Assembly: GCA_965208905.1 (NCBI GenBank)
Contig: OZ242365.1
Span: 224,001 to 288,000, forward strand
From: Nitrosopumilaceae archaeon
GTDB lineage: Archaea > Thermoproteota > Nitrososphaeria > Nitrososphaerales > Nitrosopumilaceae
Direction: 5' to 3'
DNA: 64,000 nucleotides
The translations under genes and the position numbers were made by a program. Positions 14,368-35,117 of this stretch are shown one piece after another. A model generated the notes under the pieces. It was not told where the DNA came from. It was given only the letters and a program-made list of their open reading frames with translations, and did no database searches. Position 1 is the first letter of the stretch, and the number at the start of each line of letters is the position of its first letter.

Positions 14368-15453
14368 ATGGTGGATAAGAGAGTACGTATCGCAGGCATA
14401 ATAGGGGCACTGGCTTTCTCTGCATGGGTACTGACATCACCATCAGATCCCCTACCCATACCAGCACCGTCTGGTGAGGGACCTGAAGACTCTGTAGTCA
14501 TATTGGCAGAAGATTTAGAGAGGCCAAGGCACATAGCTGTAATAGATGATTATGTATTTGTTACAGAGCGGGAAGGGCGTATACGATTGGTGGATAATGG
14601 GACACTACTCGAAAGGCCAGTAGCAGTACTGCGGCCTGTTGAGGACTTTGATATAGGACTCAGTGGCGTTGCAGTGCATCCAAACTATAACGAAAATGGA
14701 TTGTTATACGCATACATATCCTACAGAGAAGATGGCACACTATACAATAAAGTCATGAAGATAACGCTGGTAGAGAATAGATTGGTGGATGCCATACCAA
14801 TTATAGAGCATATACCGGGATCCCGATTCTCCAACGGTGGTGTAGTAAAGTTTGGGCCTGACGGTATGCTATACATAGGAACCGGTACACCTTCAGACTC
14901 ATCCCATCTACCTCAGGATATAGACTCGTTGGCTGGAAAGATACTGCGCATACATGATGATGGAGCCATACCAACAGATAATCCGTATAAAGATTCGCCG
15001 GTATACTCACTTGGTCATCGTAACATCAGAGGCATGGACTGGGACAGTACAGGAAGATTATACATATCCGAAGAGGGTCCTGACAAAAACGATGAGATAA
15101 GCCTCATAACACCCGGTGAAAATTATGGTTGGCCAGAGAGTGAGTGTTATGGTTCAGGTTATGCCAATGCCACAATATGTTATGATCCTGCCATAGAGCC
15201 AGGGGGCATAGCATTCTCAAATGGTGTCGCGGCTACATCAGGTCATCTGTTGTTGGCATCATTACGGGGCGGTGGGCTCTTTGAGATAGACGTAAATGAA
15301 GGTCTATCATCACAAAAAATTCTCTTAAGTGGTGTTGGACGCATTCGGGATGTGGTCCAGAGTGAAGATGGCACAATATACGTGATAACCTCAAATACAG
15401 ATGGTAAAGGATTTCCCGCCGAGAGTGATGATAGACTGCTGATGCTACGATAG
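14368..15453 (+). CDS. PQQ-dependent glucose/sorbosone dehydrogenase family protein
   Basis: GG.VKFGPDG.LYIGTG, GKILRI, GHRN, NYGWP, GRIRDV; N-terminal anchor. Confidence 0.88.
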   Translation: MVDKRVRIAGIIGALAFSAWVLTSPSDPLPIPAPSGEGPEDSVVILAEDLERPRHIAVIDDYVFVTEREGRIRLVDNGTLLERPVAVLRPVEDFDIGLSGVAVHPNYNENGLLYAYISYREDGTLYNKVMKITLVENRLVDAIPIIEHIPGSRFSNGGVVKFGPDGMLYIGTGTPSDSSHLPQDIDSLAGKILRIHDDGAIPTDNPYKDSPVYSLGHRNIRGMDWDSTGRLYISEEGPDKNDEISLITPGENYGWPESECYGSGYANATICYDPAIEPGGIAFSNGVAATSGHLLLASLRGGGLFEIDVNEGLSSQKILLSGVGRIRDVVQSEDGTIYVITSNTDGKGFPAESDDRLLMLR

Positions 15454-15553
15454 CACAGGCCAGATGTGGTCTTGAATTATACTGGACAGTTGTAAAAGAC
15501 AACAGGTCAAGATGGCCTCCAATATCAAGGGGCGCCGGGCGCATACATTATCA

Positions 15554-15578
15554 GGTTCCTCCCGCAAAGTCGGGTGAT
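15554..15578 (+). repeat. left TIR of element 1, GGTTCCTCCCGCAAAGTCGGGTGAT
   Basis: Exact reverse complement of 17145-17169. Confidence 0.95.
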
Positions 15579-15601
15579 GGTTGATGTGTTGTTGGATAGT
15601 G

Positions 15602-15608
15602 TTAAATA
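15602..15608 (+). promoter_or_regulatory. putative TATA box of tnpB-1
   Basis: TTAAATA 19 nt upstream of ATG 15628; the same box precedes tnpB-2. Confidence 0.5.
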
Positions 15609-15627
15609 CGTTATTAAACCGTACTAT

Positions 15628-17145
15628 ATGATGGCTCTTGTAAAAAATAGTAGGGCAATAACACGTACATACACAAAAAATTTGGGTATGCAGTACGTGT
15701 TTGAGCATGTCAGGAAGGTGGCAGAAGTGGCGTACATTATAGCAGATAACACGGGGAAGAATACCTATGGTGTTAACGCATTGATGTATCGTACAATGCG
15801 CGGCCCTGACCCCAAAGTACATTCGTCCATAACGCAGACCGCCATACGGGACGGGGTTGCCGCCCATAACACGTACAATACAAAGACTGCGCAGGGCATG
15901 AAGGTATCTGAGCCCGTGTTTCGCAATCCGGTTGTAAAGTTGAAAAACCAAAATTGGAGGCTGAATCCGATAGCGGGTGGATATATGACTATTGCAAATG
16001 TTGGCTCATCAAAACACCCACATATGATAGCAATTCCCATCTCTTCAGATGTGGTACGCCGCATAGGACAAAATGAGTTGGGCGAGTTGTGGATCACGCC
16101 GACCACATACACCATAACGTATTACAACAAAGTGCCCGAGGTTGACAAGCCCCACCCATACGGCAAGTCAGAGATTATCGAGTTGCTTACGGATGTGGGG
16201 TATGTGGGCGGCACACCAAAGGATGTAATTGGCGTAGATATCAATGAGAAGAACATCACCGTAGGAGATAAAGATACAATGGTACAGTTTGATCTATCCG
16301 ATACGATACAGGCCATTGAAGACGCAAAGACTGAGGATGCAAACAATACGTATACACGTACACATGATAATGCTGTATATGCGGCACGTACCGGAAGGCG
16401 TGTTGTATACAAGAAAGAGGAGGAGCGCAGAGAAAAACAACAAGTTGTGTGTGGCGGTCCCAAGTTACACAGCAAACTCAAACGCAGATACAGAAAACTC
16501 AAGAGGGAGGGCAAACACAAGAGGGCCGCGGAGATAAAGAAGCAGATGAATAAATGCATATTAAACATACAGCATAACCACACAAAGTCAAAGAAGAATG
16601 CTAAAAAGCGCAAGGTGGCCAAAGCCGTGCGCCATCATGAACATGTGCTGAATGTGATGGCACTATGCATCGCACAGTGGGCCGCACAGTCTGGGTGTTT
16701 GGTGGTGTTGGAGGATTTAACCCGCATATCGTATAATTGGCAGAAGGGTGGAAGGTTTGGACGTATGATGCGTCGCAGGTTATATTCTGCCATGATGCGA
16801 AAGGCATCGGATTTAATTTATGAAAAGTCCCGGTTTTTGGGAGTGGAGGCATTACATATGCGTCCACACAACACATCCAAGCTATGTGCTGCGTGCAGAA
16901 CCATACTAACTGGAACTTATCATAGAAAAGACTGCACCCGCTGCCATATAGTTGGCGTAGATCGTGACGTCAACGCAGTGGAGAATATACGGCGAACAAG
17001 TGCCGTATCCCGATATGGTCGTCAGGTTTCGGCCAGTCTGGGCGAAGTCCGTCGTGGTGTGGATGTAATCCTCGATCCCACACCACTCATACAGGGTTGC
17101 TGGAGCAACTGGGCTGACAGACTATCCCGCATAGCGGGGGTGTAA
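15628..17145 (+). CDS. tnpB: TnpB/Cas12f-like RNA-guided nuclease, large form (ORF open from 15574)
   Basis: RuvC-I GVDINEKN, RuvC-II VVLEDL, Zn finger TSKLCAAC...CTRC, RuvC-III DRDVNAVENI. Confidence 0.88.
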   Translation: MMALVKNSRAITRTYTKNLGMQYVFEHVRKVAEVAYIIADNTGKNTYGVNALMYRTMRGPDPKVHSSITQTAIRDGVAAHNTYNTKTAQGMKVSEPVFRNPVVKLKNQNWRLNPIAGGYMTIANVGSSKHPHMIAIPISSDVVRRIGQNELGELWITPTTYTITYYNKVPEVDKPHPYGKSEIIELLTDVGYVGGTPKDVIGVDINEKNITVGDKDTMVQFDLSDTIQAIEDAKTEDANNTYTRTHDNAVYAARTGRRVVYKKEEERREKQQVVCGGPKLHSKLKRRYRKLKREGKHKRAAEIKKQMNKCILNIQHNHTKSKKNAKKRKVAKAVRHHEHVLNVMALCIAQWAAQSGCLVVLEDLTRISYNWQKGGRFGRMMRRRLYSAMMRKASDLIYEKSRFLGVEALHMRPHNTSKLCAACRTILTGTYHRKDCTRCHIVGVDRDVNAVENIRRTSAVSRYGRQVSASLGEVRRGVDVILDPTPLIQGCWSNWADRLSRIAGV

Positions 17146-17169
17146 TCACCCGACTTTGCGGGAGGAACC
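17145..17169 (-). repeat. right TIR of element 1
   Basis: ATCACCCGACTTTGCGGGAGGAACC; overlaps the last base of the tnpB stop codon. Confidence 0.95.
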
Positions 17170-17290
17170 CATTATCAAAGATGTTTGTAATGTATGAATG
17201 AAATTTACATATTTACAAGACCGCCATCGACCAGGCGTCAGCACACATAAAATAACAAATCTGTCATAGAGTTTTAATATAGACAAAAAA

Positions 17291-18457
17291 ATGATAAAAA
17301 GTGTGGAAAGCGTATGTGTTTTGGGTGCGGGAAGTACAAAGTATGGAAAGTTAGATGATAGCATAGTAGACATAACCGTACAGGCATCAGCAGATGCAAT
17401 AAACAGTGCAGGAATAGAGCCTGCCGACATAAAGGCCGGATACATATCCAATGTATTTGGCATAGCAGACAAACAAGTGCATCTAGGACCTGTAATTATG
17501 AGTAACCTTGGTATTTCAGACAGACCATCATTATCCATAGAGTCCGCATGTGGCAGTGGCTCTGTCTCGTTTAGGGAGGCATATGCCAATGTGGCGGCAG
17601 GATTCTACGACTGCCTATTGGTAGCAGGTACAGAGAAGGTCACCCACACCGGTACCGAATGGACTACCACGTACTTTGCATACTGCTCAGACTTCTTCCA
17701 TGAAGGGTCTGCAGGCGCATCGTTCCCAGGACTGTTTGCAGCCATGGCACGTGCCTACCTGACCGAATTTGGCGCCACCGAAGAGGACTTTGCGCAGGTT
17801 GCAGTAAAAAACCACAACAATGGAATACTCAATCCAAAGGCGCATTTGAGAAAGAAGATAACCATAGATGATGTTATGAAATCGGCCGTGGTAGCCAGTC
17901 CGCTCAAGCTGTACGACTGCTGTCCATTCTCAGACGGGGCCAGTGCCGTCATATTATGTACAGAAGAGTTTGCCAAGAAGACAGGCGGCGACTACATAAA
18001 AGTAACAGGATCCGGACGTGGAGGTTCGCCAGCAGCATTGCAGGGACGGGAGCACATTACAACAATTCCCAGTACAGTAATAGCATCAAGATCAGCCTAC
18101 AAGATGGCAGGTATAACTGCCAAAGATGTGGACTTTGCCGAAGTACATGACTGTTTTACAATAGCCGAAATAGTAGATACTGAAGATTTGGGATTCTTTG
18201 AGAAGGGTAAGGGTGTGGAAGCTGCTCGAGAAGGTAGAACCGCACTAAATTCAGACATATCAATAAACCCCTCTGGAGGTCTAAAGTCAAAGGGACATCC
18301 CATTGGTGCTACCGGTGTGGGGCAAGTAGTTGAGATGTATGATCAGTTAACAGGCCAAGCAGGTCCCCGGACCGTACATGATGCACATATAGGACTTACT
18401 CATAACTTTGGAGCCACCGGGGCCAGCTGCGCCGTCCATATCTTTGAAAGTGTTTAA
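17291..18457 (+). CDS. acetyl-CoA C-acetyltransferase (archaeal thiolase)
   Basis: ESACGSG, AEVHDCF, GHPIGATG. Confidence 0.92.
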   Translation: MIKSVESVCVLGAGSTKYGKLDDSIVDITVQASADAINSAGIEPADIKAGYISNVFGIADKQVHLGPVIMSNLGISDRPSLSIESACGSGSVSFREAYANVAAGFYDCLLVAGTEKVTHTGTEWTTTYFAYCSDFFHEGSAGASFPGLFAAMARAYLTEFGATEEDFAQVAVKNHNNGILNPKAHLRKKITIDDVMKSAVVASPLKLYDCCPFSDGASAVILCTEEFAKKTGGDYIKVTGSGRGGSPAALQGREHITTIPSTVIASRSAYKMAGITAKDVDFAEVHDCFTIAEIVDTEDLGFFEKGKGVEAAREGRTALNSDISINPSGGLKSKGHPIGATGVGQVVEMYDQLTGQAGPRTVHDAHIGLTHNFGATGASCAVHIFESV

Positions 18458-18458
18458 A

Positions 18459-18824
18459 ATGTCCACTCGTCAAAAATTTATTGATGCCGCCCAAAGTGGT
18501 AAAGTACTACTATTACAGTGCAAGAGATGTAATACAATGCATACATCTACGGTGTGTTTCTGCAAAAAGTGTGGCTTCTCAAAGTTTGAGGACAAGGTAG
18601 TTCAAGGGATTGGCAAGGTAGTCACATATACCATAATTACTGTTCCACCGGCGGGTTTTGAAGAGTATACACCCTATGCGTTTGTTGTTGTAAACCTTGA
18701 TGATGTAGACCAGCGAATATCTGGGTTCATGGGAGGGATCTCTACACCTGCAGATTTACCAGTGGGGTCTGCAGTCCGTGTATATGGATACGATGAGCGC
18801 GGTCTATTGATAAAGTTTCACTAA
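18459..18824 (+). CDS. DUF35 Zn-ribbon/OB-fold thiolase partner
   Basis: CKRC...CKKC followed by G.VVTYTII.VPP; adjacent to the thiolase. Confidence 0.88.
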   Translation: MSTRQKFIDAAQSGKVLLLQCKRCNTMHTSTVCFCKKCGFSKFEDKVVQGIGKVVTYTIITVPPAGFEEYTPYAFVVVNLDDVDQRISGFMGGISTPADLPVGSAVRVYGYDERGLLIKFH

Positions 18825-18855
18825 CTTTATAAAATGATAAAGGATCATTCCTTGT

Positions 18856-19041
18856 ATGGTAATCGATGTTTATTGTGGAAAGTGCAATACAAAAATAGGA
18901 TCAACAAATATACTAAAGCCCATCAAGCAGATATCTGGAGTCGAAGATGGAAAGTGTCCATCCTGCGGACATAAAGTATCACTGTCAAACTTCACATTGG
19001 ATGTAGTAAAGTCCACCTCCAAGTATGGCTCTCTAGAGTAA
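18856..19041 (+). CDS. small zinc-ribbon protein
   Basis: CGKC and CPSC pairs in 61 aa. Confidence 0.6.
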   Translation: MVIDVYCGKCNTKIGSTNILKPIKQISGVEDGKCPSCGHKVSLSNFTLDVVKSTSKYGSLE

Positions 19042-19191
19042 CATGTGATATAATGGGCCATACATCTCATACACCACACAAGATATCGGCTACATCTAAG
19101 GAATCATCATTTTCTAATGTTATAATAATCACCAATCTCTACAAAATGAGTAGAACCTAACTATTAATTACAACTTTGATGTAACCAGTCC

Positions 19192-21090
19192 ATGGATAAG
19201 TGGGTTGGCGATATGTTTGAAGAGCCAGAGAACGAGTCGGTCATGCCAACCCGGGTCAAAAAGATCTTTTCAGCCATGGACAGTCCCCAGAGATTGAGAA
19301 TTCTTAGGGCACTAAACTCAAAAGGTCCGCTCAGTTATTCAGAGCTTAAAAGACTTGCCGGCTTTCATCCCAAAAGTGAGAGTGGTAAGTTCGCATATCA
19401 TCTGCGCAGCTTGGACAATCCGGGTCTGGTATTGTTGGACAAAAATACCAAACGGTACGACATTACTAATCTAGGAAAGATGTCCATAAGTCTGGTAAAA
19501 CAGATAGAAGAAAAGTCCATTCATGAGTCCAGTCGAATGTACGTGAGAACATCTCATCAGGCCATAGAAGAGTTTAACGCAGATAAGATAATGCGATCCT
19601 TGGTACGTGAGGGGAGTATGCCCATGGATCTTGCGCAGCGCATCACCGAAGAGACGGAGAACCGCATATACAAGTATCAGACATCTCATCTTACAGGGCC
19701 TCTAATTCGAGAGTTGGTGAATGCCGTACTTTTGGAGGGCGGACATGAAGGCTATAGGAGCAAGATGGCCCGGTTGGGCATTCCCGTGCATGATCTACAA
19801 GAGATGCTGACAGATGTCGATAGCGTGATGGCCGGTTTAGAACACATAATGCTAACTGCAGGGCGGCGGGTATTTGTAGAGTATCTACTAACTAATACAT
19901 TGCAGCGAGATGTGGCAGACATGTATCTGTCAGGTGGCATTCACATATCAAATCTGGCTTTATGGCCACTGGCACCAGATACAATATTTCTGAATATCAA
20001 CGACATCATACCGCAGAGTGACATAAAGATATCAAGTCTAGTCAAGATGCTCAACCATGTATTGTGGGAGGCATCCAGTGAAGTTGTAATAGATGGCATA
20101 TCCAATATCGACTCAATATCGCAGTATATGGCAGACACTCTCATCATGATGCACGCACCCCACGGTGCGGCCCACCTGTCACTATATGTACCATTGAACT
20201 CAAAGTCCATACATGGCATATTAGAGGCGTACAAGACCTATGTCAAAAGTGTGGACACTCCCACAGCAGGGCTTGTCATAGATACAAAAGATACCAAGAT
20301 TGCAGAATTTTCAGACATATTATCAGATATTATAAAATGTAACGGAGTCATAACTATTACCAAACAAAAGTCTGGTAAAAGTGGTATCATAGACAGTAAC
20401 GATAAGGGGGCATCAGCAAAGATGCACTCGCTGGCCATAAATCTGCCTAGTTTGGCTTACGAGTCAGAGGGTGATGAGGCGTACTTTCGGGCAAAGTTAG
20501 CAATGAGTATGGAACCCATAATATCAGCATTGGAGTCAAGACGAAAGGATATTGCCGACATTACACGTTGGGGGCTTAATCCGATTCTTGCAGAGAACAT
20601 CATAAAGCAAGAGAAAAGGTCTGTAAATATCACTATCAATTTAGTGGGAATGCATGAGGCCATGACTCACATTTTAGGAGACGATTACCCGCCCAAAATG
20701 GTGCTCAAAGTATTAGAGACTGCCAACCATGTTGTATCAAAGATTAGTGGTAAGACAGGTCTCCCCATACTGATATCCATGATACATGCAGATGGCATCT
20801 CCCGTCTGGTGGAATTAGACGCAAAGAAGTACGGTAAAGACAAGGTGTATAATATGCAGGATGGTAGATATCAGCACGGTGTCAGTATAGATGTACGTCA
20901 GACCATAATACCAGGACAACTAGATCGCATAATATCAAATGCAAAGAAGGCTGCTGCTGTTTTGGGTGGAGGCCTGTACACCGAATTGTCATACCAAAAG
21001 AGTACGCCGCAGTCAGATATCATACGTGGAATAGAGTTGTTATCAGATCATCTCAACTTTACAGTAAAGCTCAAACACGACTCATCTTAA
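19192..21090 (+). CDS. ArsR-type HTH + ATP-cone + degenerate NrdD-like protein
   Basis: RLRILRAL..SYSELK..GKFAYHL wHTH; VRTS..EEFNADKI ATP cone; INL motifs of the class III RNR fold. Confidence 0.75.
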   Translation: MDKWVGDMFEEPENESVMPTRVKKIFSAMDSPQRLRILRALNSKGPLSYSELKRLAGFHPKSESGKFAYHLRSLDNPGLVLLDKNTKRYDITNLGKMSISLVKQIEEKSIHESSRMYVRTSHQAIEEFNADKIMRSLVREGSMPMDLAQRITEETENRIYKYQTSHLTGPLIRELVNAVLLEGGHEGYRSKMARLGIPVHDLQEMLTDVDSVMAGLEHIMLTAGRRVFVEYLLTNTLQRDVADMYLSGGIHISNLALWPLAPDTIFLNINDIIPQSDIKISSLVKMLNHVLWEASSEVVIDGISNIDSISQYMADTLIMMHAPHGAAHLSLYVPLNSKSIHGILEAYKTYVKSVDTPTAGLVIDTKDTKIAEFSDILSDIIKCNGVITITKQKSGKSGIIDSNDKGASAKMHSLAINLPSLAYESEGDEAYFRAKLAMSMEPIISALESRRKDIADITRWGLNPILAENIIKQEKRSVNITINLVGMHEAMTHILGDDYPPKMVLKVLETANHVVSKISGKTGLPILISMIHADGISRLVELDAKKYGKDKVYNMQDGRYQHGVSIDVRQTIIPGQLDRIISNAKKAAAVLGGGLYTELSYQKSTPQSDIIRGIELLSDHLNFTVKLKHDSS

Positions 21091-26549: not shown

Positions 26550-26694
26550 GACGATACAGTCCAACAATTGTTGAACGCACTGCTCCCAATCCCAGTCTTA
26601 GTCATGGGCTGTGACGTTATCTGCGCGTGTCCCAAGACAGCGCGTTTGACAACCCGTCGTATAGTTGAGTAGACAAATCTCCTGAATACACCGC

Positions 26695-26701
26695 TTAAAT
26701 A
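26695..26701 (+). promoter_or_regulatory. putative TATA box of tnpB-2
   Basis: TTAAATA 21 nt upstream of ATG 26723. Confidence 0.5.
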
Positions 26702-26722
26702 CCACCGAACTCATTGTATAAT

Positions 26723-28021
26723 ATGAAGTACAAAGACGAAAAGTACGTCATAAAGACTCTACAGTACCGTCTTAAGATATCCACCAGACTCACTCGATAC
26801 TTTAACTCAATGTATTCGGAATCCCACATATGGCTCAATGCAGGAATAAGGGCGCGTAAGGCTGGACTGACGGTGTTTGACACCAATAAGATAGCCACTA
26901 TATGCCAGACCATCCCCCAGGCCTGGGTTCGCGGCGCCATACGTGAAGGCCACAAGATAGAAGGCTGTACGCATGTAAGATATGGTAGGAAGGTTTACCC
27001 CCTGTTTAGTAACGTGCCACTCGGTAAAAAATCCAAAGGTACAACGGTGTATTTCCCAAGATGTAATATACCATTCAAACTACAGAAAGGGCATCTACCC
27101 AATACATCCCAATCATATAAGATAGTGGATGTCACGAACACTACAGACAAGGAGAGGCAGTTCGAACTACATGTAACTATACGTGAGCATGTCCCGGACC
27201 GCGTAGCGACGGGTGTACATGCTGGTATTGATATGGGTGGTAAGCACACGCTTGTTGTTGGAAAGTCCGATGGTAGTATTGCCATGCTGACATTACGTGA
27301 GAAGGATACTATACGGAACATAGCGCGTATGCAAAAGAAGATGAGTAGGTGCAAACTTCACTCCCGCAAGTGGCGCAACCTGCATGATACATTAAACAGC
27401 ATATACCGTAAGTTGGGAAATAGACAGAAAGACAAGCTGCGCAAGTTCTCAAAGAAACTAATGCGGCAGTGTGATAGAATAATCATGGAGGGGATGAACC
27501 TCCGTACAATGACGACCAAGGGTCCCGGGCAGACGCCCAAAAATCGTACGATGCGACAAAGTCATTGTGGTGAGGCGCGGGAGCACATTTCACAACAATA
27601 CCTACGATATAATGTAGAATATACGGAGATAAACCCAAAGAATACCTCAAAGCAGTGCTGTATGTGCGGTAGTTTGAATACGTGGCGCAAGAGCAGTAAG
27701 TTTAGGTGTCATAACTGCGGTATAGTGTGTCATGCGGACATCAATGCGGCATTCAACATACTTTTCGCTTTTCGTATTATACAGTGGAGTAAGCGCGCTC
27801 AGGGCGTTTATTCCCTACAAAACAAGGCTGGAATGGTCTTGAGAGGAAAGATACATCTCGCGACACTTACTATACCCAGTGTCGTTGGTGATGTGATGGC
27901 CGGTACAGGCTGTCACCAGGCTAGGCGTCAAAACCCGGCTGACAATGAACGTCTCTTGGAAACTCCTCTGGATGGTAATTTGCCAACATTTGTTGTACTG
28001 GGCGCAGGCCCAACTGTATAG
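26723..28021 (+). CDS. tnpB: TnpB RNA-guided nuclease
   Basis: RuvC-I AGIDMG, RuvC-II IIMEGMN, TSKQCCMCG...FRCHNCG Zn finger, RuvC-III HADINAAFNI. Confidence 0.9.
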   Translation: MKYKDEKYVIKTLQYRLKISTRLTRYFNSMYSESHIWLNAGIRARKAGLTVFDTNKIATICQTIPQAWVRGAIREGHKIEGCTHVRYGRKVYPLFSNVPLGKKSKGTTVYFPRCNIPFKLQKGHLPNTSQSYKIVDVTNTTDKERQFELHVTIREHVPDRVATGVHAGIDMGGKHTLVVGKSDGSIAMLTLREKDTIRNIARMQKKMSRCKLHSRKWRNLHDTLNSIYRKLGNRQKDKLRKFSKKLMRQCDRIIMEGMNLRTMTTKGPGQTPKNRTMRQSHCGEAREHISQQYLRYNVEYTEINPKNTSKQCCMCGSLNTWRKSSKFRCHNCGIVCHADINAAFNILFAFRIIQWSKRAQGVYSLQNKAGMVLRGKIHLATLTIPSVVGDVMAGTGCHQARRQNPADNERLLETPLDGNLPTFVVLGAGPTV

Positions 28022-28290
28022 CAGCTGTATTGAGTACGCGCATGTATGGACACGCGCAGATAACGTCACAGCCCACTTGGTCATATGACATGAGTCTATA
28101 AGATGCCTTGTGGCTTTGCAGTACTTTGGTGAAGTGTTATTAACTATTTTGCTTCATTGGTTGTCAAAGATGAGGTGTGCAGCCAAATGCTCTATACGTA
28201 ACAGTACAACAGACAAAATAACAGATAGTTTAGAGGATACCTTTGTACAACAAAGAGACTACATCTACAATACCAACGAGTTGCCCTAGA

Positions 28291-34739: not shown

Positions 34740-34771
34740 GGTTCCTCCCGCAAAGTCGGGCGATTACACCC
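34740..34771 (+). repeat. third copy of the element-1 right end (TIR plus inner TACACCC)
   Basis: GGTTCCTCCCGCAAAGTCGGGCGATTACACCC versus rc(17138-17169) GGTTCCTCCCGCAAAGTCGGGTGATTACACCC: one mismatch. Confidence 0.92.
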
Positions 34772-34976
34772 AGATAATGTGATGTCGCGCCGCAGCTTCA
34801 GTTGGCCGCTACACGCCTTGGGGCCGAGCTTTTCCAAACTGGCTACCCCTATGTTAGCCCCAGCATTACAGTCAGCGTGATCCGAGTGGCCGCACCGCTG
34901 CACCAGAGCTCCCTACCGTCCCGGTTGTCCTTGTGGATGCACCCACACGGACATCAACGCTGGCTGGTGTAAGCTA
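34764..34976 (-). pseudogene. tnpB: tnpB 3' remnant
   Basis: Minus strand reads AYTSQR*CPCGCIHKDNRDGRELWC, frameshift, QRCGHSDHADCNAGANI (Zn finger plus RuvC-III). Confidence 0.8.
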
Positions 34977-35117
34977 CCATGACCCAAATGATACCACCGA
35001 TACGCTGGTAAGATAGCAGAAGAGCCAGTAACCCCAGCATTGCTCGGGTATCTACTTGTTGAGTCCGGATTTTCGACTCAAGATTATAATAACATCACAC
35101 AATACAAGAGATTAGTA

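Follow-up and report, generated by a model that had tools for sequence, protein, structure and literature searches.

A tnpB gene between inverted repeats

The 64,000-nucleotide stretch analyzed here (the window; positions 224,001 to 288,000 of contig OZ242365.1) belongs to a Nitrosopumilaceae archaeon, a sponge-associated ammonia-oxidizing-type archaeon whose genome is a single contig of 2.21 Mb (45.6% G+C; 99.6% completeness). Window positions 15554 to 17169 hold a 1,616-bp element (element 1), which consists of a tnpB gene enclosed by terminal inverted repeats (TIRs). The left TIR, 25 bp of IS6-like type (GGTTCCTCCCGCAAAGTCGGGTGAT; 15554 to 15578, forward strand), is mirrored at 25 of 25 positions by its exact reverse complement at 17145 to 17169 (reverse strand). 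At up to three mismatches, the TIR has three matches in the window and none in 100 dinucleotide shuffles. The same 8 bp, CATTATCA, read directly on both sides of the element (15546 to 15553 and 17170 to 17177), form a target-site duplication (TSD), and the trinucleotide ATA (15543 to 15545, forward strand), a putative target-adjacent motif (TAM), stands directly 5′ of the left copy. The only open reading frame (ORF) of the interior (15574 to 17145, forward strand; 523 amino acids as the longest ORF) has a GTG start inside the left TIR and a stop that overlaps the first base of the right TIR. The ATG codons at 15628 and 15631, at which alignments with homologs begin, are the likelier starts. 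By the archaeal promoter spacing rule, TTAAATA at 15602 to 15608, approximately 26 nucleotides (nt) before these codons, would be the element's own TATA-like box.

The ORF probably encodes a divergent TnpB/Cas12f-like, RNA-guided nuclease. Residues D222, E380, and D465, which make up the D-E-D triad of a split RuvC domain, are invariant in 18 homologs (37 to 96% identity); in the C4 zinc finger between RuvC-II and RuvC-III, C438 and C441 are likewise invariant, and C454 and C457 are conserved in at least 90%. The original prediction, which had been made from the sequence alone, described perfect 25-bp TIRs, an exact 8-bp TSD, and a single ORF that fills the interior and carries the RuvC residues and the zinc finger, and all of these stand. 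The sole Pfam match of the ORF is Cas12f1-like_TNB (E value, 2e-6; 28.3 bits versus a cutoff of 26.3), and a profile search of Protein Data Bank sequences reached Cas12f at 2.6e-9, with an alignment spanning RuvC-II, the zinc finger, and RuvC-III. Cas12f, TnpB, and Fanzor2 were the top Foldseek matches of an AlphaFold2 model (mean predicted local distance difference test score of 70), with E values down to 1.7e-13 and template-modeling scores of only 0.24 to 0.37. The protein did not reach the threshold of the NCBIfam model guided_TnpB and gave only a weak match to Cas12f2 in that collection. When 1.84 billion representatives were searched exhaustively with a profile, 22 matches had E values of ≤1e-30, approximately 6 of them full-length; a word-based search yielded 31 relatives, and those bearing names were labeled Cenarchaeum sp. 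transposases.

Copies and empty sites

Across the genome, the TIR has 35 occurrences at up to three mismatches, compared with none for a reversed-pattern control. BLASTN searches of the host genome identified 12 full-length copies including element 1 (family A; 86.7 to 92.1% identical to element 1), together with one 5′-truncated copy and fragments. The ORF abuts both TIRs in the same register in all 12 copies, and 8 of the 12 have perfect 8-bp TSDs, every one of a different sequence. A 585-bp internal-deletion derivative, also with a perfect 8-bp TSD, retains the left 175 bp and the last 432 bp, including the RNA region described below. Short TIR-TIR derivatives without tnpB were found at genome positions 646148 to 646632 and 1496677 to 1496822; the 485-bp derivative holds remnants of an IS6 transposase and none of tnpB. 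Family-A TnpB is under purifying selection: the ratio of nonsynonymous to synonymous substitution rates averages 0.22 among the 10 intact paralogs. With open frames of at least 500 amino acids in 10 of the 12 copies, this ratio, and the conserved D-E-D triad and zinc finger, TnpB of this family looks functional.

The insertion of element 1 duplicated 8 bp of its target. Its locus was searched by BLASTN against nine other genomes of the genus, and one of them (G005) returned two flank matches, 96 to 97% identical, that overlap by exactly 8 bp. The aligned empty site (L096) reads ...GCGCATG CATTATCA AAGATGT..., with one target copy and no TIR. Similarly, the G005 sites homologous to the copies at genome positions 329442 and 894636 are empty and carry a single 8-mer (6 of 8 positions identical) and a single TGTATTTA, respectively. 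For the copy at 2201020, the G005 site has one copy of the 8-mer but is rearranged, with approximately 130 bp extra, and for that at 872692 the homologous site is rearranged. Family-A copies differ by 8 to 13%, yet most have kept intact TSDs, and G005, with flanks 96 to 98% identical, is empty at the sites tested; much of the family's divergence therefore probably predates insertion. As a separate observation, a 3.3-kb insertion beside an empty family-A site (L116; G005:C1:1093300-1096750) has the TIR GGGTGTGTCCCAC and the 8-bp TSD AAACAGCA and gives a weak IS630-like match.

Contigs from reads were also checked over element 1 in three DNA-type sets and one RNA set. No empty-allele joint (15553 to 17170) was seen in these four sets. 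Contigs from X1 and X3, which may include the source sample of the window, extend from the left flank 29 bp into element 1 with zero or one difference. Other joints in X1 and X3 contigs bridge 1,057 and 1,143 internal bases, which points to deletion derivatives. Contigs from the RNA library X18 cover 15933 to 16108, 16403 to 16549, and 16768 to 17145, as well as the neighboring thiolase gene; we did not count this coverage as expression because the contigs show neither transcript ends nor strand and DNA carry-over is possible.

A probable transposase partner in a related genome

The TIR pattern is present in 8 of the 9 other genomes of the genus and in none of 31 genomes outside it. The congeneric genome G009 contains eight elements of 1,442 to 1,464 bp whose TIR is identical to that of element 1 at 23 of 25 positions (e.g., GGTTCCTCCCGCAAAGACGGGTGGT at both ends of L047:2731-4172), and seven of the eight have perfect 8-bp TSDs. 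The four elements that were translated encode a transposase of 386 to 388 amino acids and no tnpB; in the L047 element, the transposase gene occupies L047:2930-4093 on the minus strand. One of two scanned transposases passed the Pfam model DDE_Tnp_IS240 (31.8 bits versus a cutoff of 27), and the best NCBIfam family of the one scanned there was IS6 (E value, 1.4e-21). Further relatives of this transposase are found in records titled as Nitrosopumilaceae metagenome-assembled genomes (MAGs). It has an N-terminal zinc-binding region, like the long "clade h" members of the IS6 family (PMC7986276). As in that family (e.g., IS26, IS257, and IS6100; Varani et al. 2021, PMC7986276), the TIRs are short and start with GG, and 8 bp of the target are duplicated. 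Typical IS6 members measure 700 to 890 bp and carry their own transposase (PMC7986276), in contrast to element 1, which at 1,616 bp carries a nuclease instead. The TIRs of element 1 are those of an IS6-like insertion sequence.

The host genome has no matches to PF01797 (the Y1 transposase) or PF00239 (the resolvase/serine recombinase), for which the same searches matched 6 and 12 of 14 control genomes, respectively. Its one IS6-like copy cognate to element 1 (genome positions 926302 to 927837) is a pseudogene with many stops and frameshifts. Sixteen unpaired or short-pair TIR matches were examined, and none adjoins an ORF of the labeled DDE families. The original prediction, which proposed a non-autonomous DDE-type element with IS6-like ends that carries tnpB, is borne out in its main lines: other TIR-tnpB-TIR copies with different TSDs exist in the host (12 full-length, 8 with distinct perfect TSDs), a related genome has an empty site with a single target copy, and the G009 elements supply an autonomous DDE partner. 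We consider it likely that element 1 is one of 12 full-length non-autonomous transposons of IS6 type whose interior consists of tnpB and an overlapping guide-RNA scaffold.

The host genome also contains 12 or 13 intact IS6-like genes (373 to 498 amino acids; e.g., 18770 to 20032, 1257326 to 1258822, and 1337783 to 1339027), which share 64 to 80% DNA identity with one another; DDE_Tnp_IS240 and a SWIM zinc finger were matched on the one that was scanned. These genes were rejected as the partner: they are only approximately 30% identical to the G009 transposase, and none of them is bounded by the TIRs of element 1. Around them, no TIR pair was detected except a weak 12-mer, and they may be domesticated or stationary transposases. 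Separately, at genome positions 924780 to 927837, a tnpB element of family B (see below) is separated by 8 bp from the decayed IS6-like element, which has the opposite orientation, and TTAAACTC stands on either side of the pair, as if a composite of tnpB and DDE elements had moved as a unit.

Other tnpB families and their ends

Clustering of all host ORFs of at least 150 amino acids gave approximately 80 tnpB-like ORFs in at least eight families, along with IS630-, IS3/IS481-, IS110-, IS1595-, and IS6-like transposases. In G005, a family of 540-amino-acid TnpBs that are 33 to 46% identical to that of element 1 lies between TIRs of the sequence GGTTCTCTCGAAAATACGGTTGATG, with 8-bp TSDs (three perfect, one matching at 7 of 8 positions). 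A TnpB from another thaumarchaeal MAG (L118; 35% identical) has IS6-like TIRs (GGTTCGCTTGCAAAGTCGG...), around which no matching TSD was found. Judged from these sequences, the association of tnpB with IS6-like ends is old, because TnpBs that are only 33 to 46% identical also sit between TIRs of the GGTTC... type. The suggestion in the original prediction that an archaeal element had "captured" the nuclease therefore stands as far as tnpB lies within IS6-type ends, and fails as a one-off event, since such distant TnpBs share the architecture.

Family B of the host genome, a canonical TnpB by NCBIfam, has a related TIR and 8-bp TSDs. Two further host families, C and L037, have 8-bp TSDs and quite different TIRs (GGGAATTATATAC...), whose terminal GGGAATTATA is shared with a 2,146-bp IS1595-family element of the same genome. 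The latter is present in two copies (genome positions 675262 to 677407 and 1211847 to 1213990), with the TIR GGGAATTATAGTGATGGGTAGGAT and its own 8-bp TSD, and its first 10 nt are those of the two tnpB families; its IS1595 assignment comes from a Pfam match on a 77%-identical paralog of its transposase. Since IS6-like and IS1595-family elements with a transposase share the ends of the tnpB families, the ends track the DDE family and not the TnpB clade. The 2,146-bp element also includes approximately 1.1 kb without any ORF of at least 150 amino acids.

A predicted RNA over the 3′ end of tnpB

We aligned the last ~230 nt of 14 family-A copies and of 4 copies of the G005 540-amino-acid family. 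RNAalifold predicted 50 base pairs, 18 of them with compensatory double changes. Paired cells amounted to 98%, versus 34 to 42% when the partners were slid by one to three columns, and the slid controls gave 0 to 5 compensatory pairs. The clearest helix (17054 to 17062 with 17078 to 17086; 9 bp) encloses a conserved 15-nt loop; seven of its nine pairs differ between the two families, and all still pair. The rate of synonymous substitution (dS) is 0.115 in the RNA region versus 0.278 upstream, i.e., approximately 2.4-fold lower. The covariation shows a putative RNA structure that occupies the last ~230 nt of element 1. Its predicted core (~16943 to 17135, forward strand) overlaps the 3′ end of tnpB, and the right TIR comes next, which is the layout of TnpB omega-RNAs. 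The right TIR would presumably form the 3′ end of the scaffold, and the right TSD copy, by analogy with TnpB systems, the first 8 nt of the guide.

A small potential hairpin was also observed within the TIR itself (positions 8 to 11 and 18 to 21, i.e., window 15561 to 15564 and 15571 to 15574), of the form CCCG-N6-CGGG. Variants across the genus include CCCA..TGGG, in which both sides are changed, and CCTG..TGGG, of wobble type, and the loop varies freely. This pattern is unusual for a protein-binding repeat. The hairpin was not picked by RNAalifold, and we draw no conclusion from it.

A one-sided motif at a fixed offset

All flanks were oriented so that tnpB reads forward. Of the 12 family-A copies, 11 carry the dinucleotide TA immediately before the left TSD (local TA frequency, 0.10; binomial P = 1.4e-10), and 1 carries it at the mirror position after the right TSD. 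The base before TA is T in eight copies and A in four (WTA, mostly TTA), and the first base of the TSD is C in nine and T in three. The G005 540-amino-acid family has TTA in all four copies with both ends. At the same offset, family B shows A-T-n-T-T-G (TT in 7 of 7 and G in 5 of 7 copies; nine were listed, of which a truncated copy and the one within the composite were excluded), and family C shows A-T-n-G (G in 10 of 12; of 15 listed, three with unclear left ends were left out). The motif was already in place at three of four homologous G005 sites.

We infer that the one-sided WTA motif is a TAM. In known TnpB systems the guide begins at the right end of the element; if the same holds here, a TAM must lie where the motif sits. 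With the order of TAM, 8-bp target, and right flank, the RNA would match the empty allele.

Proposed mechanism and alternatives

In the mechanism that we propose for element 1, an IS6-like DDE transposase encoded elsewhere would bind the TIRs and move the element in trans, presumably by the replicative, cointegrate-type pathway of the IS6 family (assumed from PMC7986276). Transcription through the right TIR would produce an omega-RNA in which the right TSD copy opens the guide and the flank continues it. TnpB and this RNA would recognize a WTA (mostly TTA) TAM before an unoccupied target and cut empty alleles, after which either repair from an occupied chromosome would copy the element in or the empty alleles would be lost. 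The DDE transposase itself would not choose TAM-adjacent sites. Only insertions whose left end lies exactly 8 bp downstream of a TAM could be driven by TnpB, so the motif would be retained, and on one side only.

More tentatively, the guide-RNA nuclease module of this sponge-associated thaumarchaeal genus may have left Y1 and serine-recombinase transposons for DDE shells, which are of the IS6-like type in families A and B and of the IS1595-like type in families C and L037. The TAM would lie exactly 8 bp upstream of the left end so that the guide starts with the duplicated target, homing by TnpB would decide which random insertions persist, and the dozen TIR-less IS6-like genes may be stationary drivers. 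We regard this wider scheme as possible and still doubtful.

One alternative accepts an IS6-type non-autonomous tnpB element and reads the flank motif either as a target preference of the transposase or as a flanking TATA-like promoter that drives tnpB. The left flanks are indeed AT-rich, the TTA or ATA of family A is TATA-like, and IS6 members often form hybrid promoters with flanking DNA (PMC7986276). This account fits less well because the family-A TIRs are identical at both ends, yet the motif is found in 11 of 12 left and 1 of 12 right flanks, because it is fixed to the base, unlike a TATA box, because families B (TTG) and C (a G) have non-TATA motifs at the same offset, and because the element has its own TTAAATA at 15602 to 15608. 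The transposase-bearing G009 copies also lack the motif, and we consider the account as a whole unlikely.

The two remaining alternatives concern how tnpB came to be mobile. TnpB itself, through its RNase-H-like RuvC domain, could be the transposase that recognizes the TIRs and makes the 8-bp TSD without a DDE partner, which would suit a host that has no intact cognate transposase, Y1 enzyme, or serine recombinase, yet holds ~80 tnpB-like ORFs in at least eight families with TSDs. We consider it highly improbable: TIRs of the same type and 8-bp TSDs bound tnpB-less G009 elements with an IS6-like DDE transposase, the termini of tnpB families whose ends are unrelated (GGGAATTATA...) recur in an IS1595-family element of the host genome, and published experiments found TnpB dispensable for transposition (Bao and Jurka 2013, PMC3627910). 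Alternatively, a Y1 transposase could have put tnpB into a pre-existing IS6-type miniature inverted-repeat transposable element (MITE), with which it was never co-mobilized. Short tnpB-less TIR-TIR derivatives do exist, although no support for such an entry was found; the 485-bp derivative contains IS6 transposase remnants and not tnpB, and the host has no Y1 gene. The ORF abuts both TIRs in one register in 12 of 12 copies, and the architecture recurs in TnpBs that are 33 to 46% identical. Moreover, the three empty G005 sites have one target copy each and no TIR, which therefore rules out the entry of tnpB into a pre-existing MITE, an origin that we find barely credible.

Several observations weigh against the non-autonomous IS6-type element with a TAM-guided nuclease, which we nevertheless prefer. 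On the side of the transposase, the second scanned G009 protein did not reach the DDE_Tnp_IS240 model, the NCBIfam match to IS6 lies below its cutoff (77 versus 125 bits), and no intact cognate transposase with element 1 TIRs is present in the host genome. TSDs do not match in 4 of the 12 family-A copies, one of which fits at 8 of 9 positions if shifted by one base, and no pair of copies is more than approximately 92% identical, so nothing points to very recent transposition. As regards the RNA, Rfam gave no family for window 15400 to 17400 at E values up to 1, and the compensatory changes come mostly from one deep split, between family A and the G005 family, and therefore represent few events, although so many of them with no broken pair are difficult to account for in another way. 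As for the motif, flank statistics are the sole basis of its reading as a TAM, and their control, the transposase-bearing IS6-like copies of G009 (TTA on 1 of 16 flank sides), comes from a different genome of different composition. In addition, the empty G005 site of element 1 has ATG rather than ATA, with G at the equivalent of window position 15545, which may be due to chance as the flanks are 3 to 4% diverged.

Relation to known systems

The premise of the original prediction that prokaryotic tnpB normally travels in IS200/IS605 or IS607 elements is out of date, as TnpB in DDE-type inverted-repeat elements has been in print since 2023. In their available text, Altae-Tran et al. (2023, PNAS; PMC10691335) describe six DDE-associated TnpB groups (DDE-1 to DDE-6) with inverted terminal repeats, as well as solo TnpBs whose ends match those of elements that have a transposase, which implies mobilization in trans. 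IS630 is the only DDE partner named in that main text; a 2026 review (PMC13565253) extends the list to ISL2 and IS1031 and describes such associations as rare. Like the DDE-associated TnpBs (PMC10691335), that of element 1 lies inside an inverted-repeat element, with the 3′ end of tnpB near the transposon end. Unlike them, its partner is IS6-like with 8-bp TSDs (IS1595-like for other host families), and tnpB replaces the transposase in the host genome rather than sitting beside it. The available text of the IS6 review (PMC7986276) records a single passenger-gene member and two MITEs and contains no mention of TnpB. By title or abstract, nothing relevant was found in the literature on TnpB with the IS6 family, a search scope that did not extend to the supplements of PMC10691335, where IS6 or IS1595 partners may be listed; among the papers listed for the Nitrosopumilaceae and sponges, none contains TnpB. 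The novel findings are partners of IS6-like and IS1595-like type, a genome wholly devoid of Y1 transposases and serine recombinases, the covarying RNA with its lowered dS, and the offset TAM-like motif.

Element 1 also resembles the IS1341 group of the IS200/IS605 family in its single tnpB ORF, the RNA scaffold overlapping the 3′ end, its many copies per genome, and derivatives that retain only the RNA-bearing end. However, IS200/IS605 elements have subterminal hairpins and no TIRs or TSDs and depend on Y1 (PMC3627910 and PMC13565253, available text), and Bao and Jurka (2013, PMC3627910) describe tnpB-only elements without TIRs or TSDs, in contrast to element 1, which has both. It further differs from IS200/IS605 (Y1) and IS607 (serine recombinase) in that neither enzyme family occurs in the host genome. 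As with Fanzor1 in eukaryotic transposons with TIRs and TSDs, a TnpB-type nuclease appears as the passenger of a DDE-type element. The Fanzor1 guide RNA overlaps the right inverted repeat, and some TAMs agree with the insertion site (PMC10530073, available text). Unlike Fanzor1, element 1 is archaeal, and its glutamate holds the canonical TnpB position, approximately 50 residues before the zinc finger (E380 and C438).

TnpB is proposed to cleave alleles that lack the transposon, which leads to the element being copied back, and this homing role has been worked out for scarless Y1 transposons, in which the target site of the transposase is the TAM. The available text of a 2026 review of obligate mobile element-guided activity (OMEGA) systems raises the question of whether and how homing works in target-duplicating DDE transposons. 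The element 1 locus is a natural test case, offering a defined non-autonomous element, a partner, empty sites, a covarying RNA, and family-specific motifs at an 8-bp offset, within a whole genome where ~80 tnpB genes persist without a Y1 transposase or serine recombinase. It shows how RNA-guided nucleases can switch transposon vehicles. The TnpB clade is small and very divergent, and its predicted TAM and scaffold are testable as an editor.

Further tnpB remnants in the window

Two other tnpB loci were observed in the window. At 34740 to 35081, a solo TIR (24 of 25 positions) is followed by family-B-like fragments of a tnpB 3′ region on the minus strand (50 to 70% identical over residues 320 to 417), forming a truncated second element. 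At 26607 to 28056 (genome positions 250607 to 252056) lies a copy of a third tnpB family (L034), 73% identical to the family reference; the best-preserved copies of this family, whose TSD is indistinct, have a different TIR (GGGAACTGTCCCA...).

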